DNA of 64,000 nucleotides, taken from the sequence record PP391266.1. One strand, 5' to 3'. The stretch's first letter is position 1. Every line of letters starts with the position of its first letter. This document shows positions 4,926-59,189 of the stretch, piece by piece. The position numbers and the translations under genes were made by a program. The notes under the pieces were generated by a model. It worked only from the letters and a program-made list of their open reading frames with translations, searched no databases and was not told the origin of the DNA. The stretch comes from Escherichia phage PJNS034.

Positions 4926-4926
4926 A

Positions 4927-5002: not shown

Positions 5003-5004
5003 AT

Positions 5005-5079: not shown

Positions 5080-5095
5080 AACCTCTTTATCCGAT

Positions 5096-5167: not shown

Positions 5168-5174
5168 AATCCCT

Positions 5175-19116: not shown

Positions 19117-19152
19117 ATTTTAAGCTTCTAGCGTCCGAAGGGAAATAATAGG
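19117..19152. repeat. conserved ~36-bp intergenic element, copy 1 (tattttaagcttctagcgtccgaagggaaataatagg)
   Basis: Near-identical to 33004..33039; lies between minus-strand genes, preceded in transcript sense by a hairpin. Confidence 0.6.
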
Positions 19153-19196
19153 TAATAATATAGAAGGGAGAGATGTTACTCCCTCCCAACATACTA

Positions 19197-40748: not shown

Positions 40749-41204
40749 TTAGTTACTTTCTGGAACAGCAACAGTCAGCTTAATACCAGCCAACTTGTCT
40801 GCAATCATCTTGTCCAGCTCTTCAGCAGTCAGTTCTTCATCATTCTTAATGTCCACTTCAACAGAAGCAGCTTTAGGATAGACGATATCGACCAGCTTCA
40901 TAGCAGCCATCAGACGCTCTTTAGGAGTAGCTGTGGGGCTTTCCATCACATCAATGAGGTATTCATCAGGGCGAATACGAGCGTTTGCTATAGCGTCTAA
41001 CATTTGCTGTGTGAGCTTGTTACGGGAGCCTTTCTTACGACCGCGACCAAAATTATTGCCGGGTAAGAAGGTGTTTTTGACAAGATTTCGACCTTTCGAG
41101 CAGGGATGGCCTTCTTCACTGAAAAATTCAATGGTTTTGCCTTTATACTCGTCTCCTACGCTGAGATGAGAGTAATCATCCACATAAGTCTTTTCATTAG
41201 ACAT
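40749..41204 (-). CDS. terminase small subunit (putative)
   Basis: First gene of the leftward block, directly upstream of the large subunit; basic GRGRKKGSRNKLTQ segment. Confidence 0.5.
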   Translation of the reverse strand: MSNEKTYVDDYSHLSVGDEYKGKTIEFFSEEGHPCSKGRNLVKNTFLPGNNFGRGRKKGSRNKLTQQMLDAIANARIRPDEYLIDVMESPTATPKERLMAAMKLVDIVYPKAASVEVDIKNDEELTAEELDKMIADKLAGIKLTVAVPESN

Positions 41205-42072
41205 TCATGCCACCTAATAATGGGGTTAGTTGAAAGATACACTGTAAGATGGAACCATTCATGCCAGTTCATCTACATGCCATGTCATAAGTATACACTG
41301 ATAAGAGGCTATCATGCCACCTCATACATGCCAGTCCATACTTCTGTGGGGATATAGGTAAGAGATGCTACATCTTACACTACTTATACCTATTATTTCC
41401 CTTCGGAATATAATGTTTAGGGTACAGGAAGAAGTGCCATATGACAAGACTTATTTACCAATTGAATTACAAATTCAGTGAATTTATAAGTGTGAGATAA
41501 CAAAGTGTGGATATTGCTCACTTTTTAACCAGAAACGTAAATTTCACTTGAGCGGTATGTGGCATATCAGCTTTAGCATAATGTTCAAAAAGGGGGAACG
41601 GGTTCCGCTCATGTTCCGGCGTGTGAATGAGGCGTGTAGACTACCACTAGCCCCTACCCTGAGTCAATACCCTCACTGGTCTGATGAGTGTGACTGCTCA
41701 AGTAGTAACCGTGTGATGCCGTGTGATGAGTACCCATCGTGCATAGTTATTCATGATAATTTATTTTTGGATAGCCTGAATAAATAATAGCCAGTGACCC
41801 GTTAGAATCTGCGTGCGTGTCTGATACTGCCTGAGTTATACCTCCATAACGCCAACGTTTAAACGGTGTATTGATAACGGGTAACAAGCCAGCGACAAGT
41901 GAATAAATATTCCAAGAGATAGCATATCTAATCAATCTATCTTCTCTTTATTCCTTTTACAGTGTAATTCTTATTTGTTTATAAGTAATAATTCTCCTCG
42001 ACCTATTGACAATTACCGTCGAGTAAATTACGCGTGTGTTTCATTACGTCTTAAAGAAATGATTTGTTTGTT

Positions 42073-42100
42073 TTGCTATTGACTTTTTAACTCATTCGTT
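42073..42100 (+). promoter_or_regulatory. sigma70-type promoter (TTGACT-16-TAATAT)
   Basis: Hexamers read directly from sequence. Confidence 0.5.
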
Positions 42101-42161
42101 TAATATAGCTCCCCGTTGAAACGCAGAACATCGCGGAGTAAACAAGTTAATCACTAAGTGG

Positions 42162-42190
42162 TTGACTGAATCGGGTTAGTATGTTTTAAT
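42162..42190 (+). promoter_or_regulatory. sigma70-type promoter (TTGACT-17-TTTAAT)
   Basis: Hexamers read directly; followed by AACGCTCTTTAA leader motif. Confidence 0.4.
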
Positions 42191-42371
42191 GCTTACCGAT
42201 TCAAACGCTCTTTAAAAATGTGGTCTGTCTTTAGGTGGTGTTTAACATCATTACTACAAGGCGCTTAGTTAGTTATCTGGTTTTGATTCCTGTTTCATTA
42301 GTGATTCAGGCGGATTGATAAAGCATCTTCAATAAGTCTTTAACAGTTCGATACTTCGAAGAAATTAACGA

Positions 42372-42399
42372 TTGACAGCGTACTAGATTCCTGTAAGAT
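42372..42399 (+). promoter_or_regulatory. sigma70-type promoter (TTGACA-16-TAAGAT)
   Basis: Consensus -35; followed by AACGCTCTTTAA leader motif. Confidence 0.5.
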
Positions 42400-42517
42400 A
42401 GACCACGTTTTAACGCTCTTTAACAATATGAATCATTAACGCTTAAACGTTAGTTTAATCAGACGTTATCAAGTGAAGCTGAAAAGTAACACGATAACAA
42501 ATGATGAAAATAAACGG

Positions 42518-42545
42518 TTGACAGCGTGAAATGATTCGGTATAAT
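42518..42545 (+). promoter_or_regulatory. strong sigma70-type promoter (TTGACA-16-TATAAT)
   Basis: Both hexamers perfect consensus. Confidence 0.65.
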
Positions 42546-43026
42546 GAGCGCCATCGAATGACAGAACGTTGTCAGACGATAGCCGGATAAGTGGATAACT
42601 TATAACGGCAGTTCGATAAAGTAGTGTGGTAGCGGGTAGCGGTATGTAACACGGATAATCTACGGATTAACGGCTTATTTGTTGCTTGCTTAAAGCATAA
42701 AACGTCGGGCGGCACGATGGGAGAAGTGCATAAAATCAATTAGGCTCCCTGACTCTTTAACAATTAGGAAACTACGCACCACAATTAACGTTGGATAACG
42801 TAAAGAGTGGGTTAATTTAGGGTGATTCCCTGCGTAGGCTTGTCGAGCTGATAACAGCGGTATGTGATGGACGCTTATATACTCCCTCCATGATAGTGTA
42901 TGACTGATTCCACCTAGGCCAAAGTGAAAGGGCGATAACGAATAGCAAGTAACAATCTCGTTTGATATGGGCATTTAATAGTGAGTGTCCAGATTAAACG
43001 ATAAAACTGAATTGAGGATTAAACCT

Positions 43027-43608
43027 ATGTCTATCTTAATTGCTGACCTGATTCGTAACGCTGACGGTGTTAACTCTCTGGCTGACTCTATCCAGTCCGA
43101 AGGTAAAAAGCTGGATAACATGATTCATCTGGCGCTGGCTTCTGCTACTGTTCTGGTGCATGAGCATGGCGATGTTACCGTGTTAAACCGTGTCATTAAC
43201 AAGCTGTCTTCTGGTGTCCGTACCAATGCGGCTCGTGCTTTCGCTGAAACTTTCGCTCCGGTAACTTTCGATAAGAAAGCAAAAGAGTTCCGCTTCAACA
43301 AACACAAACGCAATGAAGCATTCATTGACAGTGAAGCGGCGAAAGAAATGTGTGAAACTGTCTGGACTAAATTCCGTCCTGAGCCTGAGTATAAGCCAAT
43401 GAATCTGGCTGACTCTTTCACTAAGCTGATTGACCGTGCCGCTAACGATATGGATAAGAACGACACCATTTCCGAAGCACAAATCGCTCTGCTGCGCTCT
43501 TTCCAAGAGCAATTGGTAACACTCCAGACCAAAGAAGCGGCTGAACGTGATGCGGCAAAGGCACAAGCTGCAATCGCTGACGCTCCGGCTGAGGAAGTAG
43601 CGGCATAA
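43027..43608 (+). CDS. first early protein (193 aa), function unknown
   Basis: First ORF downstream of the promoter cluster; ATG 43027 with GAGG upstream (ORF track starts at GTG 42985); followed by a hairpin. Confidence 0.5.
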   Translation: MSILIADLIRNADGVNSLADSIQSEGKKLDNMIHLALASATVLVHEHGDVTVLNRVINKLSSGVRTNAARAFAETFAPVTFDKKAKEFRFNKHKRNEAFIDSEAAKEMCETVWTKFRPEPEYKPMNLADSFTKLIDRAANDMDKNDTISEAQIALLRSFQEQLVTLQTKEAAERDAAKAQAAIADAPAEEVAA

Positions 43609-43632
43609 GATAGGCGATAGTCTATAAACATC

Positions 43633-43670
43633 TAGCCCCTTGCATTGAATAAATGTGAGGGGCTTTTTGT
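43633..43670 (+). terminator. terminator-like hairpin after first early gene
   Basis: agcccct...aggggct stem with large loop, then tttttgttt. Confidence 0.4.
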
Positions 43671-43681
43671 TTATGTACTGA

Positions 43682-44002
43682 ATGGAATTAATCCGCATGA
43701 CTCCTTTACAGATTAGACGTAACGCCAAACGTAAGGCGGCAGCAATGAAACAAGTTGTAACTCTCAAGTCTAAGCGTGAGAAAACTTTACTCATTACTCC
43801 ACCTGACGATGTTAAAAAGATTGTGGATAACTTTAAGTTCCCATCTGGTAAAACGTTTCGGGCTGTTCCCACTCGCAACAAAGGCACTGATGCGAAAGGT
43901 GCTAGCAGTGCTGATAAGATTGCTTGCCGTGGTAAACAGAAGTGTAAAGGGTCTAGCGTTAGGCCGTCTGGTTGGTATAGCAAGTCACAATTAGCGGGGT
44001 AA
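43682..44002 (+). CDS. basic protein (106 aa), possible nucleic-acid binding
   Basis: Lys/Arg-rich ORF. Confidence 0.35.
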   Translation: MELIRMTPLQIRRNAKRKAAAMKQVVTLKSKREKTLLITPPDDVKKIVDNFKFPSGKTFRAVPTRNKGTDAKGASSADKIACRGKQKCKGSSVRPSGWYSKSQLAG

Positions 44003-44003
44003 C

Positions 44004-44264
44004 ATGGCTGCGGGATATTTAGGCGGTGATTGTGTACACGGTGAGATTCAAGCCGTTGTAGATAACGCCGTTGACTTTGCCCGTTCTCAATTGAATTGTG
44101 GCGAGTCAGAAATGTTTTGTCTTGAATGTGATGAAGAAATCCCACAAGCAAGGCGTGAGGTTGCGAAAGGCTGCAAGTATTGTATTACCTGCCAGTCTAA
44201 GCACGATAGAAAACAAGCCAGCCAATTCAACAGGCGAGGCAGTAAAGATAGTCAATTGAGGTAA
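44004..44264 (+). CDS. DksA/TraR-family C4 zinc-finger protein
   Basis: FCLECDEEIPQARREVAKGCKYCITC matches the C-x2-C...C-x2-C TraR/DksA zinc finger as recalled. Confidence 0.7.
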   Translation: MAAGYLGGDCVHGEIQAVVDNAVDFARSQLNCGESEMFCLECDEEIPQARREVAKGCKYCITCQSKHDRKQASQFNRRGSKDSQLR

Positions 44265-44268
44265 TAGA

Positions 44269-44850
44269 ATGAGTCAGTGGTCTGAGTTTTACAAAGGGCG
44301 TCTAGGTGGACGCTATCAAGCCCACGTTTTAAAGCAGTATGCCCCATTCATCAATCGAATCATTCAGGCTGGGCGTGGTATCAGTTCGCCAGTGGTTAAC
44401 TTCCGTGAGGAGGGCGCTGGTATTGGTACGGTTACGGCTATCCTGCAACAATATGCTGAGTCTCGCTTTGACTTAGACAACTGGAAGTTTGAAATGGTTG
44501 ACCGTTGCCCTGAAATGGCTGAGTTAGCTTTTCAAAATACCGGTGTACGCTGTGAGATATTCGATATCCTTAAACGGCGTGAAATGCTGGATTCTTTACG
44601 GCCTCACATTATCCATTCTCATGGTGTACTTGAACACTTCGAGGACGATGATATACGGGCAATCATTGACAATCAGCGTACACTTGCAAAGTCTTGTGTA
44701 ATTGCATACGTTCCCACTAACGGCTATGAAAAGCCTAGCTTCGGTGATGAACGGCTCTTAGATGTGAAACATTGGGTCAAAGAGTTTAGACCTACAGATG
44801 TTCACGCTTTCAACAATGGCTGCGACCTGATGCTTTACTGGCGGGCGTAG
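44269..44850 (+). CDS. hypothetical protein (193 aa)
   Basis: ORF-track ORF; weak Gly-rich loop EEGAGIG. Confidence 0.35.
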   Translation: MSQWSEFYKGRLGGRYQAHVLKQYAPFINRIIQAGRGISSPVVNFREEGAGIGTVTAILQQYAESRFDLDNWKFEMVDRCPEMAELAFQNTGVRCEIFDILKRREMLDSLRPHIIHSHGVLEHFEDDDIRAIIDNQRTLAKSCVIAYVPTNGYEKPSFGDERLLDVKHWVKEFRPTDVHAFNNGCDLMLYWRA

Positions 44851-44928
44851 TTTACTACTGTGACGGGTGGCTCTTATGGTCGAGTATGGTGAAGAAGATT
44901 TTGTTAAGGCGGCTAATCGCTTCTGGCT

Positions 44929-45171
44929 TTGGGTCGCTATCGTTGGGACTGTAATTATCTGGGCGGTGTGCTGATGGAAGTATTAACAATGTTCGCTGTG
45001 TTCGTCATAGAGCTTCTCTGGGTGCATCCTATGGCATTCTTCGCAGACTTAGGTGCTGCGGGTCACTTTGGCTGGTCTTTGGCCTTCCTGATGGTGTACG
45101 GGCTGTTTATCGCTACGTTGCCATACAATATCCTCAAGCTATTCATTAAACGTAAGGAAATCCCTGCATGA
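44929..45171 (+). CDS. small membrane protein (80 aa)
   Basis: Two hydrophobic helices. Confidence 0.3.
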   Translation: MGRYRWDCNYLGGVLMEVLTMFAVFVIELLWVHPMAFFADLGAAGHFGWSLAFLMVYGLFIATLPYNILKLFIKRKEIPA

Positions 45172-45494
45172 TTACTATCGGAGACCGTGTACTGTATCGT
45201 TATTCACCTGCTGGCTTACCTGTGTATGGTGTGGTAGCTGATGTGTTTCAAGGTGTTGCGGCTGTAAGGGTTAACATTGAGAACCCAAACCAGACAAGAA
45301 GCGGCACTAAGGCGCTAGTCATGTATCGTAAGGTGGAAAGCTGGGAGCCTTTGAGTGAGAAGTCGCCTCTTCACGATGATTTTGTGTTGCTTGTACTGCC
45401 TCATAACGTTCGTATTTGGATTGTTAAGCAGTTGAAACGACACTCCGTAACACCCGTCATGCTTGAAAAGCTGATGGATATGAGCCGAGTTTAA
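45168..45494 (+). CDS. hypothetical protein (108 aa)
   Basis: ORF-track ORF; start overlaps previous stop. Confidence 0.3.
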   Translation: MITIGDRVLYRYSPAGLPVYGVVADVFQGVAAVRVNIENPNQTRSGTKALVMYRKVESWEPLSEKSPLHDDFVLLVLPHNVRIWIVKQLKRHSVTPVMLEKLMDMSRV

Positions 45495-45527
45495 TCCGGC
45501 TATTGACAACCTTCGGATGTGACGGTA

Positions 45528-45615
45528 AGCTAAGCCCAAGCGTCCGAAGGGAATATTACTAAGAAATAATATAAGAAAGATTATATCTAACTATATTACT
45601 TCTTATTAATATTCC
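45528..45615. repeat. AT-rich palindromic element sharing TAAGAAATAATATAAG core with 4075..4130
   Basis: Inverted arms gggaatattactaagaa / ttcttattaatattccc; same 16-mer as upstream of 4141. Confidence 0.5.
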
Positions 45616-45717
45616 CTTACTTATTGGAGGAGTTATGTTATCTCTTATCAAACTTCATCAAGATAAACTAATCATTGCACTGGTTGTGATTCTGTCCTGC
45701 TTGAACATGGATGGTGT

Positions 45718-46077
45718 GTGATGCAGGGTGTTTATCTTAAACCTCGCATTCAAGACCACATTAAAGCGACTCTGGACTTTCACTCTGCGGGTGGCAAGAT
45801 TAACGAGGTGATGGTGTTGGAGTTGTGTGATGTGATGCTGACCTTCGGCATATGTCTGCGAAATCATCCACCAGAAGCTCAAGGACAGGCTCTAAAGGGT
45901 TGCGCTAGGGAAATGCTCAAGCGGATTAAATATCCTGCCCTGCGTATTCTGGTGCGTAAAATGCTAGTGCCTTTCGCTTTACCTAAAGGTGTGTTTAACG
46001 AGTTGGAACACATCATGGAATCCTGCATCAACGGGATGAATGAAACAACTCACCAAACGATTGAACAAAAGGATTAA
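45718..46077 (+). CDS. hypothetical protein (119 aa)
   Basis: ORF-track ORF. Confidence 0.3.
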   Translation: MMQGVYLKPRIQDHIKATLDFHSAGGKINEVMVLELCDVMLTFGICLRNHPPEAQGQALKGCAREMLKRIKYPALRILVRKMLVPFALPKGVFNELEHIMESCINGMNETTHQTIEQKD

Positions 46078-46336
46078 TAACATGGCTAAGATTGCAACTG
46101 TGTGGTTTAACAAAACTGGTACTAACACTGTGTACCTCAAGCTGAATGGTAAGCTGCACAAGACTGAGGTGACTATCCCTCGTACTCACCTTATCAGCGG
46201 TCACATGCTAAATGATGCTGTTAAGAAGAAGCTGGTCGAAGAAGCGATTCGTGCTGACCTCGGCTGTGGCGTAGTTATCGCTGACAACCTCAAGAACTAT
46301 CAACACAATGGGGTACGCTTCCAGTATGGAAAATAA
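46040..46336 (+). CDS. hypothetical protein (start probably at internal Met, MAKIATVW)
   Basis: ORF-track ORF. Confidence 0.3.
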   Translation: MKQLTKRLNKRINNMAKIATVWFNKTGTNTVYLKLNGKLHKTEVTIPRTHLISGHMLNDAVKKKLVEEAIRADLGCGVVIADNLKNYQHNGVRFQYGK

Positions 46337-46754
46337 AATGAAGCGTGTGCTTAACCTGTCTGCCGATAAGGTGAACGGGTATGTGTTTAAAGATAGCCCG
46401 TCTATCTACTGGTCATGGTGGCATGTATTGCTCACCGTGGCCTTTGTTGTATTGGTGGTGTTCGCTTTGTGTGCTCCATTCAGTAAGGCACACGCTGCAT
46501 CATTCCCTGCTGGTGAGCATTTACAATGCCGCATTGAATTAGAAAGTGTTGGTGGTGGTCGTAAGCTGACGTTTAAATCTTACGATGATTCACACATCAA
46601 ACTTGCTAATAGTAATACTCTGGTGCTTCGCGGTGATGCTCAAGTGCCTGAGTCAACTGTTAACCTGAACAATGGTGAGTTGTTCGCAACAAGGGGTAGC
46701 TGGACTTATCGCGGCCTCTGTAAAAACGTAGATAATATCAGGATAAACCCATGA
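46308..46754 (+). CDS. membrane-anchored protein (148 aa)
   Basis: One hydrophobic helix followed by soluble domain. Confidence 0.35.
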   Translation: MGYASSMENKMKRVLNLSADKVNGYVFKDSPSIYWSWWHVLLTVAFVVLVVFALCAPFSKAHAASFPAGEHLQCRIELESVGGGRKLTFKSYDDSHIKLANSNTLVLRGDAQVPESTVNLNNGELFATRGSWTYRGLCKNVDNIRINP

Positions 46755-47074
46755 AAAAGATTTTTACTACTGTGACGATTCTGGCTGGCCTGTTTGCTTC
46801 ATCGGCTAACGCCTTTGTTTGCACTGGTACTGCTACCCATAAAGACGGTGGCACGGCTGACATTATCGTTAACACCAACGATATGGTGTTTGATGATGCT
46901 GTCGGTCTGTATCGTGCTGAAACTCAGTGGCATCCTAAGCTGGCCTCTACGCTGTATGTAGACCAGTCTGAAAAGACAATCGAAGGTGTTGGCTTCCGTG
47001 GCATGTACACCGCCGTAGCAGTCGATAGCAAAGACGTTATCATGATTGCTGACGACCTTGTTTGCTATGAGTAA
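46751..47074 (+). CDS. secreted protein with signal peptide (107 aa)
   Basis: N-terminal MKKIFTTVTILAGLFASSANA signal-like sequence. Confidence 0.4.
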   Translation: MKKIFTTVTILAGLFASSANAFVCTGTATHKDGGTADIIVNTNDMVFDDAVGLYRAETQWHPKLASTLYVDQSEKTIEGVGFRGMYTAVAVDSKDVIMIADDLVCYE

Positions 47075-47459
47075 ACTTGAGTGGGCTTGGTATATCTTTG
47101 CAATTACTGCCATAGTTGCATGGGGTGTATGGCTCAATAGTCTGCTGTAAGCTGCCTAATGCCTGCCTCATTGGTGGGCATTGTGAAGCATACCGCTTCA
47201 AACAACATTCTCATTAATTCCCTTTAGGGACTATCGCTATGTCTGAATGGCAATCCGATAGCCAACTTGGAACCTGTCCGTGAGTTGAAAAGAATCCTCT
47301 ATATGAGGGGTTTTGGGATAAGTAACGCAATATGGTAATCAACCTCAGGGGTGGGGTTGGTTATCTAAGTGTGTTTACGGAAATCATTGGTCATTGAGCT
47401 AAAGTACCAGTGGTAACTGATAAGCATACTTAGACAACCAACTAAATAAGGAATCCCCA

Positions 47460-47738
47460 ATGAAAAGAATTGCAATGCTGTTAAGTGCTGTAATGCTGAC
47501 TGGCTGTGTATCACTGACTGAGCAGACTGATAAAGAGTTGTGCTTTGGTTATGGTCGTGCTGAGTCAGAAGCGATGCGTGATGCTATCTTGCAAGAGATG
47601 CAAGAGCGTCAGGATGCTGGTATGTTCCCGATTGCTATCGAGGAATGTAAGAAGCAAGTGTTTCGTGGTATTCAATCACGGAATGAATCAAACCTTCTAT
47701 CTGCGAGCATGATTGGTGCTCGTTACCAACAACAATAA
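47460..47738 (+). CDS. lipoprotein (92 aa)
   Basis: Lipobox-like MKRIAMLLSAVMLTGC. Confidence 0.45.
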   Translation: MKRIAMLLSAVMLTGCVSLTEQTDKELCFGYGRAESEAMRDAILQEMQERQDAGMFPIAIEECKKQVFRGIQSRNESNLLSASMIGARYQQQ

Positions 47739-48198
47739 GGATGTAACAATGTCTCAAGTTCTGAATGATGTAAACCGCAGCTTTGGTTATGAGTTCTACG
47801 AAGAATCAAAAGCTCTGTCTGGTGTTCAAGGCTATCTGGCTGACCAGCCTAAGTTTCGTGTGTTCCTCAAGCTGCGTCGTCGCATGATTGAAGGTGAACT
47901 GCGTCAACTGAAAGTGATGCTGAAAACTGCCTCTGGTCTGGATGCTGCCGCTATCTACAAGCTGCGCTCTGCACTGAAAGATGATTTGCGTCGTATCGGT
48001 CAGCAACTGAAAGACCTGCGACTGCATACGCTGGGTGCTAAGAAAGCAGAAGCACAGCGTTACCTGAACGTAATGGCAATGCACGACCAGTGTGAGAAGG
48101 TCGGTGTTGATGGTACAAAACTCCTGAATGAAGTACATGCTGAAATTCAGGCTCGTAAGGCTTTGGATAATGAGTCTCGCAAACTGGTTTCTGAATAA
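47713..48198 (+). CDS. hypothetical protein (161 aa)
   Basis: ORF-track ORF. Confidence 0.3.
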   Translation: MVLVTNNNKDVTMSQVLNDVNRSFGYEFYEESKALSGVQGYLADQPKFRVFLKLRRRMIEGELRQLKVMLKTASGLDAAAIYKLRSALKDDLRRIGQQLKDLRLHTLGAKKAEAQRYLNVMAMHDQCEKVGVDGTKLLNEVHAEIQARKALDNESRKLVSE

Positions 48199-48339
48199 GA
48201 TGGAAGCAGGGGTTGATTTGACCCCTGTTAAAAATGTAGGGCTGGTTAAGGCCAGCACCTCACACAATGGCGGCGTTAACTTATCTGAGAAAGAACGTTA
48301 TCGTCGTCGTGAATTATCTGGAGGGATTGCTGAGCATCA

Positions 48340-49059
48340 TTGCACACATCCCGGTTATCAAATCTTCCCTTCATAAGAGAGTACAAAGTGAAACGTCCTG
48401 AAACTGCAATCCGACCGTTTATGAAGTCCAGCATTGAGAAGCTGGAAGCTGGTCAACTGTTCTATGTTCGCAATGAGAAAGGTAGTGGTTATCGTCCTCG
48501 TTGCTTTGTTGGTGTGTTGCCTGATGGTAAGACGTATCAGTATCAGTCTTACATGAACAACGATATCTTTGATTCGGTTTATGAAGAACCGCATCTTGAC
48601 GACCAGCCTGTGTTTGTCCCGAAACCATTTGCAATGAAAATCATGCAACGTGGTAAGGCACTGGCTGAGGAAGTTGCTGAGGTATTCAGCGAGATTCCAG
48701 CGAACGAAATTCAACGTTCGAATCTGGATGAACTGTTCGACCGTCTGCCTGATGAAGTTATCGACTACGACGCTTATGAAGCGATTCGTCAGGCTGTACG
48801 TCGTTTGGGTTGGCAGGACGCATCAATTGTTCGTCGTCAGAATGGCGGCTGGATGGTTGATGATGAAGCGTTTGAATATATGTACAACGCTGTGACTGGC
48901 AAGGCTGAGCGTGAAGCAGCGGATACTACTGTGACGATTGCTCCGGTGGTTGATGTGGTTGATAGCTCGATTAGCCGACCAAAAGCTAATTCATTCGTTA
49001 AGAAGCTGAGCGGTTTCTTGTTTGGTAATTCTAAGCAAGGGGATAGCTGCGGCATCTAA
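48340..49059 (+). CDS. hypothetical protein (239 aa)
   Basis: ORF-track ORF. Confidence 0.3.
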   Translation: MHTSRLSNLPFIREYKVKRPETAIRPFMKSSIEKLEAGQLFYVRNEKGSGYRPRCFVGVLPDGKTYQYQSYMNNDIFDSVYEEPHLDDQPVFVPKPFAMKIMQRGKALAEEVAEVFSEIPANEIQRSNLDELFDRLPDEVIDYDAYEAIRQAVRRLGWQDASIVRRQNGGWMVDDEAFEYMYNAVTGKAEREAADTTVTIAPVVDVVDSSISRPKANSFVKKLSGFLFGNSKQGDSCGI

Positions 49060-49070
49060 ACGGTGATTGT

Positions 49071-49520
49071 ATGAGTGTTGCAGCAACAGCAGCATTTCTG
49101 TGTATGACGTTAGTTATTCACGAAGAAGCACGAGGCGAGCCTATCGCTGTGAAATACGAGGTAGGCCACGTGGTGAAGAATCGGATGGATTCACGCCAGT
49201 ATCCAGATACATGCGAGGCGGTTGTACTGCAACCCAAACAGTTCTCGTGGACAAAAACAAAAGGTGTACAAGATGAGTACGATTTGCGACAACGTTATTA
49301 TCGCGTCCTTGACTCGCTCGACACTCCCCAAAAGCGACTTTCGTTTGCTGCTTCTCAAAGAGCGGCAGATGAAGTGCTCAGTGGTAAGCATAAATCTCGA
49401 ATCGGAGCTGCGCTCCACTTCGTTACTCGCGGTCACTCAACTCATTGGGCGTCCAAATTTAAACGCCATACTATAGCAGGTATGGATTTCCTACTCCCAA
49501 GGAAGAAGAAAAATGCTTAA
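49071..49520 (+). CDS. SleB-like cell-wall hydrolase (endolysin candidate)
   Basis: HEEARGEP matches the conserved EARGE segment of the SleB/Hydrolase_2 family as recalled. Confidence 0.55.
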   Translation: MSVAATAAFLCMTLVIHEEARGEPIAVKYEVGHVVKNRMDSRQYPDTCEAVVLQPKQFSWTKTKGVQDEYDLRQRYYRVLDSLDTPQKRLSFAASQRAADEVLSGKHKSRIGAALHFVTRGHSTHWASKFKRHTIAGMDFLLPRKKKNA

Positions 49521-49716
49521 ATGGCTGTTCCGTCAGGGAAAAGACCTGAACTCTATTCTGGCTCCGCTTCGTAAGATGAAGCTGGAACTGGAAGAACGCC
49601 TCCACAAGAATGCTGATGATATTGTGGAAGCACAAAAGACCATCACCGAAAAGACCAAAGAAAATGGTTCTATTGGTGAAGCCCTGCAAACTGACCTGTT
49701 CAAATCTATCAAGTGA
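49513..49716 (+). CDS. hypothetical protein (67 aa)
   Basis: ORF-track ORF overlapping neighbours at both ends. Confidence 0.3.
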   Translation: MLKWLFRQGKDLNSILAPLRKMKLELEERLHKNADDIVEAQKTITEKTKENGSIGEALQTDLFKSIK

Positions 49717-50645
49717 GACAAACGACTATGATTCGCACCCCATTCGGTAACTTCTCTGGTAAGACTATCGGTATCACTGCTGGCGTGATTGTGTTCCTCT
49801 TCATCCTGCTGCTGTTGAAGCCGTTCAAAGTTATCTCTGACACCGAGGAGGGTGTGCAGAAGTCGTGGTCAGGCCAGATTTACAGTCAACCAATGACTGC
49901 TGGCTTCCACTGGATGAACCCGTTCAACAGCGTCACAACGTTCCCAATGACGTATAAGAACGTTCAACTGACAAATATCGGCGTTCCTGCTCAGGACGGT
50001 TTCAAAACCACGATGGATATCAGCGTAACTGGTAAATTTATTCCGGGCATGACCCCTGCTGTCCTGAAGTCTACCGGTAATTCTGAACAGTTTGCAGCAG
50101 TGCATATCTCTAAACGTATCACAGCTAAGCTGATTGATGCTGGTAAGAAGCACGCTGTAATCAGTCAGAACTTCTACGATGAAAGCACTCTGAACAAAGT
50201 TCGTGAAGAAATCATCGTAACGGCTAACCAAGAGCTTGAGCCTCTGGGTTGGAAAGTGACTGCGGTTGAAATCAGCAACATCGACCTGCCGGACGTTATC
50301 AAGAACGCTATCAGCGAGTCCAAGGTTCGTGCTGAACAGGTTAAGCGTCAGAAAGAATCCTTAGCAATTGCTGCTCTGAAAGCACAAGAGATTGAGAAAG
50401 TTGCAGAGTCTAACTCTAAAGCAACTATCCTCGATGCTGATGCTAACGAGTACAAAGCTAAGAAAGAAGCTGATGCTAAAGTGTATGCTGCTGCTCAGGA
50501 AGCAAAAGGTAACAAAGAAGTTGCTGCCTCTGTAACTCCTGCTCTGGTTGAATACATGAATGCTCAAGCTAAGATGAAGTGGGATGGTCAGATGCCAACA
50601 ACGAATGTTGGTTCTAACACTCCTGTCATCATGAGCATGAAGTAA
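49713..50645 (+). CDS. SPFH/band-7 (stomatin/prohibitin-like) membrane protein
   Basis: N-terminal hydrophobic anchor, then band-7-like core and Ala/Lys/Glu-rich coiled-coil tail. Confidence 0.55.
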   Translation: MRQTTMIRTPFGNFSGKTIGITAGVIVFLFILLLLKPFKVISDTEEGVQKSWSGQIYSQPMTAGFHWMNPFNSVTTFPMTYKNVQLTNIGVPAQDGFKTTMDISVTGKFIPGMTPAVLKSTGNSEQFAAVHISKRITAKLIDAGKKHAVISQNFYDESTLNKVREEIIVTANQELEPLGWKVTAVEISNIDLPDVIKNAISESKVRAEQVKRQKESLAIAALKAQEIEKVAESNSKATILDADANEYKAKKEADAKVYAAAQEAKGNKEVAASVTPALVEYMNAQAKMKWDGQMPTTNVGSNTPVIMSMK

Positions 50646-50653
50646 TATACTCA

Positions 50654-50677
50654 AGCCCATCTATATGGTGGGCTTTA
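50654..50677 (+). terminator. intergenic hairpin with conserved flanks (cassette copy 1)
   Basis: agcccatc...gatgggct stem, flanked by ATACTCAAG and CTTTATGAAT. Confidence 0.4.
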
Positions 50678-50706
50678 TGAATGTTACTTAAACGAGGAAC
50701 TAAAAG

Positions 50707-50844
50707 ATGTTTGAATTTATCGGTGATTGTATTGCAACAACACTCAAGGCTGGATTGGGTGTGGTATTCATTGTGCTTATCTGGGTTGGCTTCCAGATGG
50801 CATGGAACTGGACGCTTGACCGTATTCGCTGGGGATTCAAATGA
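50707..50844 (+). CDS. small membrane protein (45 aa), holin-like size
   Basis: Read by eye: MFEFIGDCIATTLKAGLGVVFIVLIWVGFQMAWNW; preceded by conserved leader. Confidence 0.3.
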   Translation: MFEFIGDCIATTLKAGLGVVFIVLIWVGFQMAWNWTLDRIRWGFK

Positions 50845-51014
50845 AAATTGAGTTCACTGGAATGAAAGGTGGTCAGCATTGCTTCAAGAAAGGGGCATTG
50901 ACTTACCGCTTTAGCGAGGACGAACTCGCACAAATCGTTGGCTATGCTGTACGTATGGCAAAGGCTAACAACAACAAAACCCTGAAACAAACTAACTCCA
51001 AAAAGGACAAATGA
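50841..51014 (+). CDS. hypothetical small protein (57 aa)
   Basis: Read by eye; ATGA overlap with previous ORF. Confidence 0.25.
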   Translation: MKIEFTGMKGGQHCFKKGALTYRFSEDELAQIVGYAVRMAKANNNKTLKQTNSKKDK

Positions 51015-51015
51015 A

Positions 51016-52413
51016 ATGCCAATCGTAACTATCGTAACTAACCGTAATAACTCTGAAACTAAGCGTGTTGAAGCTCAGTCAGGCGGTTGCTTCGGCTTTA
51101 TGGCATCAACCTCTTTCTTCCGTGACCATCGCCGCGATGTTGAGTACGTTGGTTATCATATGGAGTCATCCAATCAGGCTAAGCATTGTAGCGAAGTCTT
51201 TGATGGTAAGAATAAGTTATTCCCGTATCACAAATTCATGACCAACAATGAGTTCCATGCTATGTTCGGTGAGAACTTTGTGGATACTCGCCACGGTACT
51301 GTTAGTCACCACGGTTATGTGGTTGTTGAAATGCAGCCAGAAGGTTTTGAAGGTGTTGGTATTCCACAGGACATGTTCATCTCTGGTCTGTTCACTGCTC
51401 GTCAGTTGAGCTATGGCCTGTATCCGAACATGCGTGACACCATTAAGAAAGGTGTTCACCCAATGATGGCTTACGTTATCAGTGAGCTGATTCAGTGGGA
51501 AGATACAAGCACTGCTCTTGCTGCACAGCTTCGCTGGAAACGTCAGCGTGTTAGTTCTTCCAACATCGACAGCACAGCGTTCGGTAAGAAGAACCTGATT
51601 AACATGTTCAACTGCCTGAAAGGTAAGAAGCATGTGCCTTACTTCGGTCACGAAGGTGGCATCATTCAGCGTGGTGGTTACAAGCGTGACCATAACTTCA
51701 ACACCTCTGCTGATAATCGTCCGGGTATTTATCAGACAATCACGGCGAACATGAACACTTCATCTGCACCGATTGAAGCTGATGAACCAATCATCAACCC
51801 GTTCCACTTCTCTCCAGCTTACCTCGGTCATGTACTGAATGAACTGCTGGGTTGTGAAGTATTTGATATGTCGAAGATGCTTGACCGTCAGGGTATGAAA
51901 GTTAACCCAAAATCTTCGGTGTACAAGTTCTACCAGATGCGTGATGTGAAGTTCCGTAAGTCATATCGAAAAGGTGATATGGTTGAAGTTCGTGCTGATA
52001 TGTTCGGTGCTGACCAGTACATCAACCGTCACAACACTCCGCTGAGCAATCTGGTTTCTTATCGTCATGGTGAGAACAACACCACTAACCGTGTTGGTTT
52101 CGTACCGGTTAAGACTCATGTTGAGAAGGTCAGCGTGAAGAACGGTGTGGAAAGCGTTAAGCTGGAAAACGGTTGCTGGGTATCTCCACGTTACATCAAA
52201 ACTGCTGGTACTCATGCGGTTGAAGGTGTGAAGATTCAGGCAGGTACTGACACTCCGGTAAATGCACTGTATACAGTTCGTAATTCAAAAGAAGTGTATG
52301 CTGCACGTACCTTTGACTTGTTCGAAGCATCTGTTCGACTGATTCAGGTTACTGGTAACAGTATCGGTCAAGAGATTATCAAGCGTCCACGTGACCTGAT
52401 TCCAGCGCTCTAA
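51016..52413 (+). CDS. hypothetical protein (465 aa), first large gene of the ligase cluster
   Basis: Long ORF with no motif I can assign; contiguous with the amide-ligase genes. Confidence 0.5.
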   Translation: MPIVTIVTNRNNSETKRVEAQSGGCFGFMASTSFFRDHRRDVEYVGYHMESSNQAKHCSEVFDGKNKLFPYHKFMTNNEFHAMFGENFVDTRHGTVSHHGYVVVEMQPEGFEGVGIPQDMFISGLFTARQLSYGLYPNMRDTIKKGVHPMMAYVISELIQWEDTSTALAAQLRWKRQRVSSSNIDSTAFGKKNLINMFNCLKGKKHVPYFGHEGGIIQRGGYKRDHNFNTSADNRPGIYQTITANMNTSSAPIEADEPIINPFHFSPAYLGHVLNELLGCEVFDMSKMLDRQGMKVNPKSSVYKFYQMRDVKFRKSYRKGDMVEVRADMFGADQYINRHNTPLSNLVSYRHGENNTTNRVGFVPVKTHVEKVSVKNGVESVKLENGCWVSPRYIKTAGTHAVEGVKIQAGTDTPVNALYTVRNSKEVYAARTFDLFEASVRLIQVTGNSIGQEIIKRPRDLIPAL

Positions 52414-52645: not shown

Positions 52646-53455
52646 ATGACGATTCGCCTGATTACTCTTGGTGCTGACCCTGAAACTATTGTTGCTCGCA
52701 ACGGTGTTCCAACTCACGCTATTGGTCTTATCGGCGGTACTAAGGAAGAACCACGTAAGATTATCCGTGGTGGTCGTGAAGTTGGTGCGGTGCAGGAAGA
52801 TAATGTCCTGTATGAGTTCAACATCATGCCACACGATACTCGTCAGGGATTCATTGACAACATTCAGCAGATGTTGGAAGTGGGTCGTGAGATTCTGGGT
52901 GATGGTTACGAAATCACTAATAAGACTTCTCACATCTTCTCTGATGAAGACATGGCTCATTTCCCTGACTCAGCGTTTATCTTCGGTTGTGAACCGGATT
53001 TCTTCGCTGGTAATGGTGAGATGAATCCGAAGCCTGCTGCACCGTGGCCGGGTCTGCGTACCGCAGGTGGTCATGTTCACTTCGGGTTCGATGAGCGTGT
53101 AGTTCGTGATGATGAGAATGTTCGTTCTCTGATTCAACTGTGCGATATGTATATGGCGTTGCCGTCAATGCTTCTGGACACTGACGACCTGCGTAAAGAA
53201 CTGTATGGTAAGGCCGGTGCATTCCGTCCGAAAGCATATGGTGCTGAATATCGTACACTGTCAGGTTTCTGGATTCATAATCCTGAAAATACTGGCTTCG
53301 TGTTTGACCAAGCGCAGAAAGCGTATGATGCGTTGGCAACTGGTCTGGGTCGTGAGATGTTGGCACGTTTCCCATACGAACTGGTTGTCGATATCATCAA
53401 CAGCAATGACCGTGGACGTGCTGAACGTGCCCTGAAAGTTATGCAGGTTGCATAA
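52646..53455 (+). CDS. amidoligase-like protein, divergent (269 aa)
   Basis: GADPETIV and TAGGHVHFGF parallel the GLELELE and STHVHLD segments of the downstream amidoligase-like ORF; preceded by conserved leader. Confidence 0.4.
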   Translation: MTIRLITLGADPETIVARNGVPTHAIGLIGGTKEEPRKIIRGGREVGAVQEDNVLYEFNIMPHDTRQGFIDNIQQMLEVGREILGDGYEITNKTSHIFSDEDMAHFPDSAFIFGCEPDFFAGNGEMNPKPAAPWPGLRTAGGHVHFGFDERVVRDDENVRSLIQLCDMYMALPSMLLDTDDLRKELYGKAGAFRPKAYGAEYRTLSGFWIHNPENTGFVFDQAQKAYDALATGLGREMLARFPYELVVDIINSNDRGRAERALKVMQVA

Positions 53456-53637
53456 TGGAAGAAGGTCTGCTGATTAGCTGGGTTGAATCTCCAGCGAACC
53501 GTAAGACCAAGACTCATACCCTCTTCTTCGAAAGCCTGGACGAGGGTTATGAGTTCATGGCCTCTAAAAGTTGTGTAATTCAAGTACAACGCATTCCACT
53601 GGTGAGAAAGAATGGCGAAACTGGTAACGGTAAATAA
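53455..53637 (+). CDS. hypothetical protein (60 aa)
   Basis: ORF-track ORF, start overlaps previous stop. Confidence 0.25.
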   Translation: MEEGLLISWVESPANRKTKTHTLFFESLDEGYEFMASKSCVIQVQRIPLVRKNGETGNGK

Positions 53638-53803
53638 CGCAGATAAAACTGTAACTCGTCGTGTCTTTATGGACAACGAAGAGGGTATCATGTGGGCAGT
53701 TGACCAAGCCCGCACAGCACTGTCAGTCGTGACTGATGATGTGGAAGTGGTCGAGGCTTCCAGCCGTAAAGGTTGGGAAGGTCATATCGCATGTGATTGC
53801 TAA
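53612..53803 (+). CDS. hypothetical protein (63 aa)
   Basis: ORF-track ORF. Confidence 0.25.
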   Translation: MAKLVTVNNADKTVTRRVFMDNEEGIMWAVDQARTALSVVTDDVEVVEASSRKGWEGHIACDC

Positions 53804-53827
53804 TTTAAACTGAACGAGAGAACTAAA

Positions 53828-54436
53828 ATGTCAATCAATATGTCAAGTGGTGATTTACGTCTGTATTGGGGTGGGTGTTATGCACCTGTTGCATGGGATG
53901 CAGCAGATAGTGGCGTAGCAACACTGGTAATTCACGACGTTCGTGTGATAAATCCAATGTCACGTGACTACACCGAAGCACGAGTTCAAGGTGAACTATT
54001 CTTCATTCGTAATGGAGAAGAGGCTCGTGGTAATTTTGAAGGTCGTATGTCTGACCTCCTCGGTGATGGGTTCACCACTCCTCAACGCAATATCGGTTAT
54101 ATCCGTGTTCACGGTCAACCGTATTGGATTACCTTCAAACGTCGTCGTACAAATCGTAAAGGCATCACCAATGACCGTCTGGCTGTGTATGTAGCTGGGC
54201 ATCGTGGTGAAGCAGGTTTGAACTTCGGTAGTGATGTGTTGTGTCGTCTGTATGCAACCTTTGATGGTCGTATCTCTGATGATTTCTGTATTCATCAGAA
54301 CATGATTCATTATAAAGGTGTGGTTGTCGGACGTTATGAGCGTCACAATCGTATTGTATTAGCTGAACGTTTTGCGTATCTTAGCTGGTCGCTGGAACGT
54401 ATCGGTGGTTACGACGTAACGGTGGAGGTTGAGTAA
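53828..54436 (+). CDS. hypothetical protein (202 aa) inside ligase cluster
   Basis: Preceded by conserved TTAAACTGAACGAG leader; stop overlaps amidoligase start. Confidence 0.4.
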   Translation: MSINMSSGDLRLYWGGCYAPVAWDAADSGVATLVIHDVRVINPMSRDYTEARVQGELFFIRNGEEARGNFEGRMSDLLGDGFTTPQRNIGYIRVHGQPYWITFKRRRTNRKGITNDRLAVYVAGHRGEAGLNFGSDVLCRLYATFDGRISDDFCIHQNMIHYKGVVVGRYERHNRIVLAERFAYLSWSLERIGGYDVTVEVE

Positions 54437-55260
54437 TGATTATTGCTGACATTTTAGGGCATGGTCGTGGGTCGGATGTTGTTGATACGCATCCGTTGAT
54501 TGTTGGTCGAGGCCGTGTAGGACTCGAATTAGAACTGGAGAATATGCCAAATGCTCGACAAGCTGCTGGTTGGACAGTTACTGGTGACGGTTCTCTGCGT
54601 AATAGCGGCGTGGAATATGTACTCCGTGGTGCTCAGGGAGGTATGGAGTTATTTAATTCGATACTTTCTCTGGAAGAAGCACTCATGGCACATCAATGTG
54701 ATGCTAACCTTCGCTGCTCTACTCACGTTCACCTTGATATACGTCGGCTCACTGTGGCTCAACTCAAGCGTTTACTTCTGGCTTATACAGTCTTTGAGCC
54801 ATTAATCTTTGAGTTGTCCGGTGCGCATCGTCGTACTAACAACTTCTGTCCGTCGTTTAGTTTCGCTCAGCAACAAATTCGTAAGCTGAGTAACAACTGG
54901 CATCATGATGGTGAACGATTCCTTGCTCGTATTGTGGAAGGTCGTGACCGCCAATCCAGTGATAAGTATTCAGCACTGAATCTGGTTCCAATCTTCACTC
55001 AGGGTTCTGTAGAGTTCCGTGGTGCAGAAGCGAAGCCAAGTGCAGGTAAGATGATTCGTCTGGCTAACCGTATTCTAAGTCTGTATGACTTAGCGGTTAA
55101 CTCTGATATGAATCAGTCTGATGCTGAGTTCATTAACTCACTGGCGAACCTTGATGTTCAACAGGCATTGATGGGTACGATTCCTCGTGACTTCGAACTC
55201 AGCGAAGAACTGGTGAATGAAGGACGTGTCTTAGCGTTCGATATTATCTCTCTGGGGTGA
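54436..55260 (+). CDS. amidoligase (Amidoligase_2 / carboxylate-amine ligase-like) protein
   Basis: VGLELELE...DGSLRNSGVEYV...STHVHLD resembles the putative amidoligase family (glutamine-synthetase-like fold) as recalled. Confidence 0.5.
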   Translation: MIIADILGHGRGSDVVDTHPLIVGRGRVGLELELENMPNARQAAGWTVTGDGSLRNSGVEYVLRGAQGGMELFNSILSLEEALMAHQCDANLRCSTHVHLDIRRLTVAQLKRLLLAYTVFEPLIFELSGAHRRTNNFCPSFSFAQQQIRKLSNNWHHDGERFLARIVEGRDRQSSDKYSALNLVPIFTQGSVEFRGAEAKPSAGKMIRLANRILSLYDLAVNSDMNQSDAEFINSLANLDVQQALMGTIPRDFELSEELVNEGRVLAFDIISLG

Positions 55261-55261
55261 C

Positions 55262-55477
55262 ATGAGCTGGAACGAACGAGAGTATCGTAAACCAAAGTTG
55301 GGCACTGTATGTGTCCACTTCGAACCTTCGTATAAGTCAACCTTTGGAAGTACGAAGAAGTTCCCTAACGCATCGTTCTACTTGAGTACGAACGGTGTAA
55401 TCATCATCCGTGATATGGATGGTGACAACATCTGTGCATACCCTGAAGGTGTGTGGCTGAATGTTGAAATGAAGTGA
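55262..55477 (+). CDS. hypothetical protein (71 aa)
   Basis: ORF-track ORF; followed by a clean terminator hairpin. Confidence 0.3.
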   Translation: MSWNEREYRKPKLGTVCVHFEPSYKSTFGSTKKFPNASFYLSTNGVIIIRDMDGDNICAYPEGVWLNVEMK

Positions 55478-55485
55478 TTAACTCA

Positions 55486-55508
55486 AGCCCTTCTTCGGGA
55501 GGGTTTTA
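55486..55508 (+). terminator. Rho-independent terminator (cassette copy 3)
   Basis: 8-bp stem agcccttc/ggagggtt with ttcg loop, then tttta; preceded by AACTCAAG. Confidence 0.55.
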
Positions 55509-55563
55509 TGGTAATCATTACCACAAACTATTGAAACTAACTATTGAACTTGAGGAAAGTATT

Positions 55564-57156: not shown

Positions 57157-57439
57157 TAAAATTGTAATTCGTATGCCGAAAGACGACATTGAATGTGAGC
57201 GGAAATATCCGTTCACTTACTTCATGAATGCAGCGCTGCGTGGTATGCAGCGTCGCTACTCTGAACAAGCGTCGGCAAAGTTTGGTAGTGAAGTTGAGAT
57301 TCTATTCCCAACTGCATTATCAAAAATGATTCATGACCACATGGTCACTCTGTATCAACAGGAAGGATTCGAACTCGCTGAAGAAGATTTCGAAGACTCC
57401 GAACAATACCGCAAATATCTGAAACTAATTAAGGGCTAA
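57146..57439 (+). CDS. hypothetical protein (97 aa)
   Basis: ATG overlapping the amidotransferase stop; ORF-track frame. Confidence 0.35.
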   Translation: MATDKIVIRMPKDDIECERKYPFTYFMNAALRGMQRRYSEQASAKFGSEVEILFPTALSKMIHDHMVTLYQQEGFELAEEDFEDSEQYRKYLKLIKG

Positions 57440-57444
57440 AACAA

Positions 57445-58938: not shown

Positions 58939-58967
58939 TTGCTTTAGGGTATTCTTCGGAGTACCCT

Positions 58968-59189
58968 ATGTCGATTGAACCGAACGAGGAATATATGAAA
59001 GTATGGGTAGTTATGTTCCAAGAGTATGACCTAGCCGAAGTGCTGGAAATCTACTCGAAGGAAGAAGATGCTATAGCACATCGTCAGGCTGAAATTGATA
59101 AGAGCTTGTCATACGCTAAGAAGTGGAATGTCAAACCACACCCTGCGCTCGAACAGTTTTATACAATTCACGAAAAAGAGGTAAAGTAA
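58968..59189 (+). CDS. hypothetical protein (73 aa)
   Basis: ATG lies at the 3' edge of a hairpin whose loop carries GGAG. Confidence 0.3.
   Translation: MSIEPNEEYMKVWVVMFQEYDLAEVLEIYSKEEDAIAHRQAEIDKSLSYAKKWNVKPHPALEQFYTIHEKEVK

Follow-up and report, generated by a model that had tools for sequence, protein, structure and literature searches.

The stretch of DNA analysed here (the window, 64,000 nucleotides of Escherichia phage PJNS034, record PP391266.1) contains a gene-free gap, 41205-43026, with leftward structural genes on one side and rightward early genes, starting at 43027, on the other. The right part of this gap is probably an immediate-early transcription unit resembling ribosomal RNA (rrn) operons, in which host RNA polymerase would be modified by Nus factors at boxA elements. 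Two boxA copies with the perfect rRNA-operon consensus follow predicted host-type promoters and lie in a region with two conserved, covarying RNA structures, a cassette of about 190 nucleotides (nt) and an untranslated leader of 475 nt. The analysis dealt with sequence features, conservation and covariation, from which promoter activity, Nus binding, antitermination, RNA processing and every role proposed for the left part of the gap were inferred.

A gene-free gap composed of two dissimilar parts

The gap extends from the start codon of a leftward terminase-small-like open reading frame (ORF; 40749-41204, ATG at 41204) to the ATG at 43027. Conservation across it was judged on a five-genome alignment, that of the leader on an alignment of six sequences and that of the cassette on 11 copies. 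The relatives compared were Pantoea phage TacPo2, the sole close relative in GenBank, and genomes from Logan assemblies found via homologues of early gene 2, with the gap at full length in L023, L024 and L026 and partial in L022. Protein or DNA pattern searches of IMG/VR and metagenomes yielded no further relatives from the window's lineage, and a second metagenome scan for relatives returned Kuraviruses, the phages that include phiEco32, only. No similarity to the gap was found in E. coli genomes, including rrn leaders and prophages.

The first-pass annotation had described this region as AT-rich and gene-free, and both statements hold. The GC content is 0.40/0.39 at 41-43 kb vs approximately 0.45 elsewhere, and every stop-to-stop frame of at least 35 codons in the gap is broken in TacPo2. 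Coding capacity in a related genome, named at the time as an observation that would speak against the description, was not seen, as no ORF of the gap stays intact in TacPo2. In the fragments aligning between the window and TacPo2, amino-acid identity is lower than nucleotide identity, and the five-genome alignment contains many indels with lengths that are not multiples of three. The gap is hence extremely unlikely to conceal small protein-coding genes: ORFs of up to 94-101 codons are present in it, and an ORF of 56 amino acids (aa) is annotated in the gap of one Kuravirus record, but besides the broken frames, the low amino-acid identity and the indels, the substitutions are compensatory for RNA pairing.

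The gap is composite. Its right half (about 41950-43026) comprises promoters, boxA elements and folded RNA, whereas the left part of approximately 750 bp is another kind of element, having neither a promoter cluster nor an RNA-fold signal, and conserved DNA repeats instead.

rRNA-type boxA elements

The boxA consensus of gamma-proteobacteria is GYTCTTTAANA, and boxA depends on Nus factors (PMC5725501). On both strands of the window (128 kb), perfect matches to this consensus occur only at 42207 and 42415, both on the transcribed strand. If at most one mismatch to GCTCTTTAACAA is allowed, there are three matches in the window, all in the gap on the plus strand (0.49 expected).

42207-42219, plus strand: boxA1, GCTCTTTAAAAAT, perfect consensus, approximately 10 nt past the predicted start of promoter P2
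42415-42427, plus strand: boxA2, GCTCTTTAACAAT, perfect consensus, approximately 10 nt past the predicted start of promoter P3
42752-42764, plus strand: boxA3-like element, ACTCTTTAACAAT, one mismatch in the 5' core

The 13 nt of boxA2 are the same as what we take to be the boxA core of the E. coli rrn operons. Read as sequence, the repeated gap word CTCTTTAACAAT is the boxA of rRNA operons.

In all six relatives the perfect boxA CGCTCTTTAACAATATG is invariant and is situated 610-675 nt upstream of the first ATG. Each relative also has a degenerate second copy, 264-306 nt before the first ATG; CTTTAACAAT is invariant in six genomes, and the three 5' bases of the boxA3-like copy vary among them (GTA, ACT or TCT). 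The transcribed (plus) strand of the relatives' loci contains no second perfect boxA, and the one extra perfect match among the relatives is found in L001, on the opposite strand and outside the gap. The gene-free regions of Kuraviruses contain 3-5 perfect boxA copies, all on the transcribed strand, with conserved cores and varying 5' flanks. In phiEco32 and other Kuraviruses these are arranged in units, a strong TTGACA promoter with an A-tract being followed in each case by CGCTCTTTAA(A/C/T)AAT; the number of promoter-boxA units varies from three to five among Kuraviruses.

In the window, 610-820 nt of ORF-free sequence lie 3' of boxA1 and boxA2, and the promoters upstream of them are predicted. 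When the accessory elements of rrn operons were looked for (a boxB hairpin upstream and a GU-rich boxC downstream, both dispensable there), boxA1 was seen to be followed by the GU-rich UGUGGUCUGU, and hairpins near boxA2 to be present but to differ in every genome. In the literature searched we found nothing linking boxA with phiEco32, Kuraviruses or lytic phages, although a mention in the primary phiEco32 papers is possible. For the phiEco32-like phage 7-11, the antitermination strategy "remains to be defined" according to the authors of the study (PMC8948821).

Predicted, conserved tandem promoters

Four rightward sigma70-type promoters had been proposed in the gap, and we find all of them, at 42079, 42162, 42372 and 42518, the only correction being that the first -35 element starts at 42079 and not at 42073. 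The last one, described as a perfect TTGACA-16-TATAAT, is indeed the sole 12/12 site in 64 kb. The list includes one more candidate, P0.

41956-41985, plus strand: P0, candidate, TTTACA-18-TATAAG, -35 within the invariant TTATTCCTTTTACAGTG, weak -10
42079-42106, plus strand: P1, TTGACT-16-TAATAT, -35 and -10 kept in the relatives as two sequence variants
42162-42190, plus strand: P2, TTGACT-17-TTTAAT with a TG extension (TGTTTTAAT)
42372-42399, plus strand: P3, TTGACA-16-TAAGAT, within the 3' part of the cassette, in this phage only
42518-42545, plus strand: P4, TTGACA-16-TATAAT, 12/12, with an A-rich upstream tract and the GC-rich discriminator GAGCGCC

The -35 and -10 elements of P4, P2 and P1 are kept in five genomes although the spacers vary. 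In P2, TTGAC and TGTTTTAAT are invariant in the five genomes, and P4 contains the invariant block AAATAAACG.TTGAC.G.GTGAA...GTATAATGAGCGCCA. By eye, P4 is similar to the phiEco32 promoter at L002 3819, with GGTTGACAGC, ATGATTC and ATAATGAGC in common, a match not reported by BLAST. The Kuravirus counterpart of P3 (TTGAAA..AAAGAC) is a poor promoter.

A loose promoter scan of 40.5-44 kb yielded no excess (6 sites found vs 7.6 expected), and sites scoring at least 10/12 are not enriched over the whole window (24 vs 25.5 in shuffles). Four of the 12 plus-strand sites of this score fall within approximately 560 bp of the gap, with about 0.1 expected (about 0.36 for the whole 1.8-kb gap). We consider conservation of the predicted promoters a stronger argument than these counts. 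With the conserved P1, P2 and P4, at least three tandem sigma70 promoters of the same orientation are predicted before the first early gene, as in phages of the T7/T5 type.

The hairpin at 41997-42023 (plus strand), after P0 and at the predicted 5' end of its transcript, has two compensatory pairs: the stem covaries (CTCGAC/GTCGAG vs CTCGGT/ACCGAG), and the loop has the invariant TTGACAATTA. A long-range helix over P1 (42031-42043 with 42120-42140) was rejected, having no covariation support. Sites of the form TTACAGTG(T/G)A(T/A) are found at 41237-41247 (minus), 41291-41300 (minus), 41957-41967 (plus) and 5530-5540 (plus), their positions including 33 nt upstream of the terminase-small-like ATG, the P0 -35 element and the sequence just before ORF 5555. 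They are invariant in the relatives and vaguely resemble the phiEco32 gp36 promoter element tAATGTAtA. As a phage-specific promoter word TTACAGTG was rejected, as it has eight copies in the window and the 8-mer is not enriched.

Two structured RNAs

The first-pass annotation had noted an unusually long untranslated leader and suggested that the region might contain non-coding RNAs. The leader is confirmed, with the -10 of P4 ending at 42545, the ATG at 43027 and a length of approximately 475 nt; the guess of non-coding RNAs agrees with the covarying folds of both the leader and a cassette upstream.

42221-42405, plus strand: structured RNA cassette, approximately 185 nt, a multi-helix domain closed by an outer stem
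42552-43026, plus strand: leader RNA, 475 nt, extensively paired, with hairpins at 42553-42580, 42582-42609, 42624-42698 and 42958-43001
42958-43001, plus strand: 19-bp hairpin of the leader, -21.1 kcal/mol, z -6.2, with its end 12 nt upstream of the Shine-Dalgarno sequence GAGGA (43014-43018)

The cassette starts directly after boxA1. Its outer stem consists of 11 bp (42221-42231 with 42395-42405), or 17 bp if extended to 42215-42411, and has two compensatory changes relative to Kuraviruses. The minimum free energy is -57.5 kcal/mol (z -3.44). Among the 11 copies, 97.9% of the cells of 52 pairs are paired vs 35-42% when the partners are slid, and seven pairs are compensatory double changes vs one in the slid controls. 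The tetraloop of one hairpin varies strictly as GNRA in Kuraviruses (GUAA, GCAA, GGAA, GUGA, GCGA), and the window copy re-registers this hairpin with a C-G to U-A change. The covariance model built from the 11 copies matches the plus strand of the window over the full model length with 172 bits (E 3e-38), and the minus strand with 16 bits; as the window copy was in the model, this match is not independent. Independent support comes from BLAST, where 42206-42398 has 73% identity to non-coding DNA of 42 Kuraviruses and nothing else matched, and from the 46 of 52 pairs that are kept in the window copy.

With the covariance model a single copy was detected per genome, and TacPo2 had none. The cassette is absent from TacPo2, L023, L024, L026 and several Kuraviruses. 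Among Kuraviruses it is present in some and precisely absent in others (L016, L018, L019 and L020 were compared with L002, L006-L011, L014, L015 and L017), and since it is bounded by boxA repeats in each case, it behaves as a gain-or-loss unit. A search of the window gap and the phiEco32 gap against Rfam 15 (E<=10) yielded no credible family, nothing being better than E 0.75. The hammerhead-like word CUGAUGAG at 41683 was rejected, as no ribozyme model matched.

The RNA 42552-43040 has a fold z score of -3.59. In the six-sequence alignment of the leader, RNAalifold predicts 98 pairs, with 94.7% of the cells paired vs 32-38% when slid. There are 26 compensatory pairs vs 0-3 in the slid controls, and none of 500 shuffles reaches the observed values. 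Several hairpins keep the fold despite wholly different stem sequences; for example, the inner stem of hairpin 42582-42609 is ATAAGT/ACTTAT in the window and ACTCT/AGAGT in L023. On the strength of these alignments the leader is a conserved structured RNA and not a passive 5' untranslated region (UTR). The transcript is C-poor (17% C vs 23-25% G), with 25% G in the leader. RNAalifold also pairs CUUUAA of the boxA3-like element with the Shine-Dalgarno region, in a helix that is invariant and hence carries no covariation evidence.

The hairpin at 42958-43001 has 18 pairs in the alignment, 100% of them kept and three compensatory, and is a candidate RNase III site or stabiliser, by analogy with R0.3 of T7, an RNase III and stability element before the ribosome-binding site.

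Early genes and the terminator

43027-43608, plus strand: first early gene, with a product of 193 aa from the family (phrog_1448) of the "conserved early protein" LUZ24 gp2
43634-43674, plus strand: strong intrinsic terminator, a 13-pair stem and TTTTTGTTTAT, directly after gene 1
43697-43999, plus strand: early protein 2, 101 aa, with the N-terminal Arg/Lys-rich motif MTPLQIRRNAKRKAAAMK, conserved in TacPo2

The family of the first early gene provides the terminal early gene in LUZ24, RSB1 and GAP52; no homology to phiEco32 gp124 was detected. The terminator is invariant in six genomes, and gene 2 begins 20-30 nt past it. The same layout is observed in phiEco32, where a 12-pair terminator is located straight after gp124 (L002 5691-5728). 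There is no plus-strand sigma70-like site above 9/12 in the 9 kb after the terminator of the window. As the terminator is conserved and no sigma70 promoter follows it, transcripts from the gap must read through to express the other early genes. Sigma70-like words are depleted in the early/middle block 43000-52000, with five found on both strands vs 13.8 +/- 4.2 expected.

Early protein 2 has the C-terminal motif RGKQKCKGS in common with phiEco32 gp120 (a weak local similarity, E 8e-4), a protein that is likewise Arg-rich in one stretch and has a terminator after its gene. A match of early protein 2 to Pfam Ribosomal_S10 (E 0.032, below the cut-off) was taken as noise. The third early gene, 44004-44261 (plus strand), encodes a DksA/TraR-type zinc-finger protein (Pfam 1.9e-7; phrog_54 8e-19), and such a gene is also present in GAP52 and all relatives. 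As the discriminator of P4 (TATAAT-GAGCGCC) is GC-rich like that of the stringently controlled rrn P1, it is conceivable that this protein feeds back on the early promoters.

Proposed mechanism and alternatives

The events on the right part would likely proceed as follows. Host RNA polymerase would start rightward at the tandem sigma70 promoters P1, P2 and P4, with P3 as a lineage-specific addition. The boxA RNA would bind NusB-NusE(S10), which, together with NusA, NusG and SuhB, would yield a fast, Rho-resistant polymerase as on rRNA operons, and the modified polymerase would cross 0.5-0.9 kb of untranslated, C-poor, heavily folded RNA. Tethering of boxA near the polymerase, which has been proposed to help the 16S leader-spacer helix to close, may also help the cassette and the leader to fold, favouring closure of the long-range helix, which begins 2 nt 3' of boxA1. 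The 19-bp hairpin 5' of the ribosome-binding site may serve in processing or stabilisation of the gene 1 mRNA, and the intrinsic terminator after gene 1 would form a checkpoint before the remaining early genes.

Several observations weigh against such a unit. Complexes of the rrn type suppress Rho-dependent terminators far better than intrinsic ones, and hence a phage factor may be needed at the gene 1 terminator; the Arg-rich 101-aa early protein is a possible candidate. GAP52 and LUZ24 have the first early gene in common with the window and lack boxA. The strongest promoter, P4, is followed by no canonical boxA for 200 nt, and the next boxA-like element is mutated in its 5' core, the part said to be recognised by NusB/NusE (PMC3177189). 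Together with Nus factors boxA can also repress, as at suhB (PMC5725501). The -10 of P2 is atypical, with T instead of A at position 2. The covariation counts come from few and related sequences (six for the leader, 11 for the cassette), and lean towards the structures, as these were derived from the same alignments, although the contrast with the slid controls is large.

Other explanations differ in what the boxA copies and the folded RNAs are for. In a variant of the proposed unit, a "pseudo-rRNA operon", Nus/boxA would be hijacked chiefly to make and fold the 475-nt leader and the mobile 190-nt cassette, which would act in trans, e.g. as decoys that occupy host proteins of RNA binding, ribosome biogenesis or defence. 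The cassette was seen in the E. coli phage studied here and in a subset of Kuraviruses, almost all of them phages of E. coli, but not in the Pantoea phage and the three metagenomic relatives, a distribution that would suggest a host-specific function. We consider such a pseudo-rRNA operon rather unlikely. It is unlikely, too, that the region is nothing more than a set of early promoters before a long 5' UTR, of the kind found in T7 or T5 and transcribed by unmodified polymerase; the boxA-like words would then be repeats close to promoters that serve some other purpose or no purpose at all. The promoter cluster and the leader are real, T7-like early regions function without boxA, and the two phages with the same first gene lack it; such repeats, however, would hardly be identical to the rrn boxA core over 13 nt, match the perfect consensus nowhere else on the two strands, always fall on the transcribed strand, and keep a strictly conserved core between varying flanks in two phage lineages. 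If instead the system resembled lambda nut, nascent RNA next to boxA would be bound by a small early protein, which together with Nus factors would render polymerase insensitive to the gene 1 terminator. That terminator is strong and conserved and has no promoter 3' of it, each genome has small hairpins after boxA2, and the product of 43697-43999 is a candidate factor, given its conserved basic N-terminal motif and its weak likeness to the Arg-rich gp120 with a terminator after its gene. Yet this protein has no Pfam or PHROG match to N proteins, its gene lies 3' of the very terminator to be suppressed, the stems and loops of the hairpins are unrelated among the five genomes, so that a conserved boxB is missing, and the boxA copies have the complete rrn consensus, a form that works without N. 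We thus regard a nut-like system as quite unlikely.

It is improbable that the folded leader is itself a cis-acting antiterminator or regulator, like HK022 put or Bacillus EAR, with boxA being secondary. The best promoter, P4, does lead straight into conserved covarying helices and not into boxA, but the helices have no similarity to described RNA families, nothing ties them to polymerase, and the conserved boxA copies would be left unexplained. A negative role of boxA, with Nus binding repressing translation or promoting Rho termination and hence throttling early expression, seems very unlikely. Repression by boxA works even 100 nt from the Shine-Dalgarno sequence (PMC5725501), and the predicted helix between the boxA3-like element and the Shine-Dalgarno region would fit such control. 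The perfect copies, however, are located 610-820 nt from the first Shine-Dalgarno sequence, before a long untranslated RNA, a setting like that of rrn operons and CRISPR arrays, where boxA antiterminates (PMC7665894).

The left part of the gap

41202-41339, no strand assigned: five CATGCCA-core repeats (17-nt family), beginning on the start codon of the terminase-small-like gene
41388-41407, plus strand: 20-nt motif ACCTATTATTTCCCTTCGGA, two copies vs 0 expected, invariant except for one T/C in five genomes
41525-41566, no strand assigned: 42-bp block TTAACCAGAAACGTAAATTTCACTTGAGCGGTATG.GGCATA, identical in five genomes except for one position near the 3' end

The left part would most likely carry packaging, terminus or late-operon signals, to judge from its conserved repeats beside the terminase-small-like gene. 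The replication origin and packaging signals that the first-pass annotation had suggested for the region are conjectural. CATGCCA occurs five times vs 0.16 expected and is nearly invariant in five genomes, these repeats being candidates for terminase-recognition or late-operon control DNA. The second exact copy of the 20-nt motif is inverted and lies 22 kb away, at 19134-19153 (minus strand), in the structural block between a terminator-like hairpin and a sigma70-like site. The 42-bp block is flanked by GTGTGA repeats over 41490-41727. RNA structure at 41520-41800 was rejected, as there is no fold signal on either strand (z +0.10 / +0.45), and hence the block is probably a site acting at the DNA level.

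In phiEco32, the gene of the homologous packaging protein gp6 is located 1.7 kb from the left terminal repeat, and topologically the gap corresponds to the terminus region of phiEco32. As gp6 is close to a terminal repeat and the first early gene is terminal in LUZ24, RSB1 and GAP52, the left part may, by analogy, contain the virion ends and terminase recognition sites.

Relation to other phages and known systems

The window is the genome of a virulent phage, a distant cousin of the phiEco32 group. It encodes an SU10-type portal (E 1.7e-144), a T4-type large terminase and the terminase-small-like homologue of phiEco32 gp6; its COOH.NH2 ligase and amidotransferase genes are of the phiEco32 type. 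Common ancestry with phiEco32-like phages is supported by the sequences of the portal, the gp6-like gene and the COOH.NH2 ligase. The phiEco32-type gene block occupies 52646-59596 (plus strand) and encodes the COOH.NH2 ligase, an amidoligase, a glutamine amidotransferase, an S6-glutaminyl-transferase-like protein and a gamma-glutamyl cyclotransferase. No sigma-factor or RNA-polymerase genes were found among approximately 35 window ORFs scanned. Ten tRNA genes (Pro, Tyr, Lys, Ser, Ile, Ser, Asn, Met, Trp, Gln) are clustered at 4423-5251 (plus strand), with a TTGACA-18-TATCTT site upstream at 4304 but no boxA before it; the gap 41205-43026 contains no tRNA genes.

The promoter cluster itself is ordinary, its design being homologous to that of the known phiEco32 early region. 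The likeness to T7 and T5 noted at first holds as a broad resemblance to phage early-promoter clusters, whereas homology is closest with the early regions of phiEco32 and Kuraviruses. There, between gp125 and gp124, 1.9-2.3 kb without genes similarly contain repeated units of a TTGACA promoter and boxA, a P4-like promoter, the 190-nt cassette (73% identity) and a long leader, and the first gene is likewise followed by a terminator. Outside the cassette and the boxA words, however, there is no BLAST similarity, and the first genes are unrelated; besides, in phiEco32 a distance of 2.8 kb and four genes of the same orientation separate the region from the genome end, whereas the gap diverges from the packaging genes. 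The T7 early region also has at least three tandem host promoters (A1-A3) and a leader several hundred nt long, with an extended irregular hairpin (RNase III site R0.3) just before the ribosome-binding site of the first gene, but no boxA, and to our knowledge the T7 leader is not described as one large conserved fold.

With the E. coli rrn leader the right part shares tandem strong sigma70 promoters, an A-rich upstream tract and a GC-rich discriminator (all predicted here), the identical boxA core GCTCTTTAACAAT, a C-poor transcript, and the position of boxA just before the 5' strand of a long-range helix closing a folded untranslated RNA. It differs in belonging to a virulent phage and preceding protein-coding early genes rather than rRNA, in having two or three boxA copies, against 3-5 in Kuraviruses, with neither boxB nor boxC recognised, and in the intrinsic terminator after the first gene. 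As in lambda nut, a phage boxA, with host Nus factors presumed here, follows early promoters, and a terminator follows the first gene; unlike in lambda, boxA has the rrn consensus and not the weakened form, and there is no conserved boxB, no N homologue by Pfam or PHROG, and the phage is virulent. The boxA elements of CRISPR-array leaders (PMC7665894) and the suhB 5' UTR (PMC5725501) also place Nus/boxA outside rRNA, on untranslated or poorly translated RNA of Enterobacteria, but these are chromosomal host loci with a single boxA each.

Implications

Three features appear to be undescribed so far, namely, rRNA-type boxA among virulent phages, the leader of 475 nt with its covarying pairs, and the mobile cassette of 190 nt. 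Kuraviruses, with phiEco32, serve as a model of how phages control host RNA polymerase, and the boxA copies provide a genetically testable hypothesis, namely, that virulent phages use the rRNA antitermination complex. If true, Nus/boxA control, known from rRNA, lambdoid prophages, suhB and CRISPR arrays, would also cover early transcription of lytic phages. Two covariation-supported RNAs, the leader and the cassette, are added to those of phages. The promoter-boxA-leader units predict dependence on host nus alleles and, if the hypothesis holds, would be compact, strong, termination-resistant expression modules for engineering and therapy.

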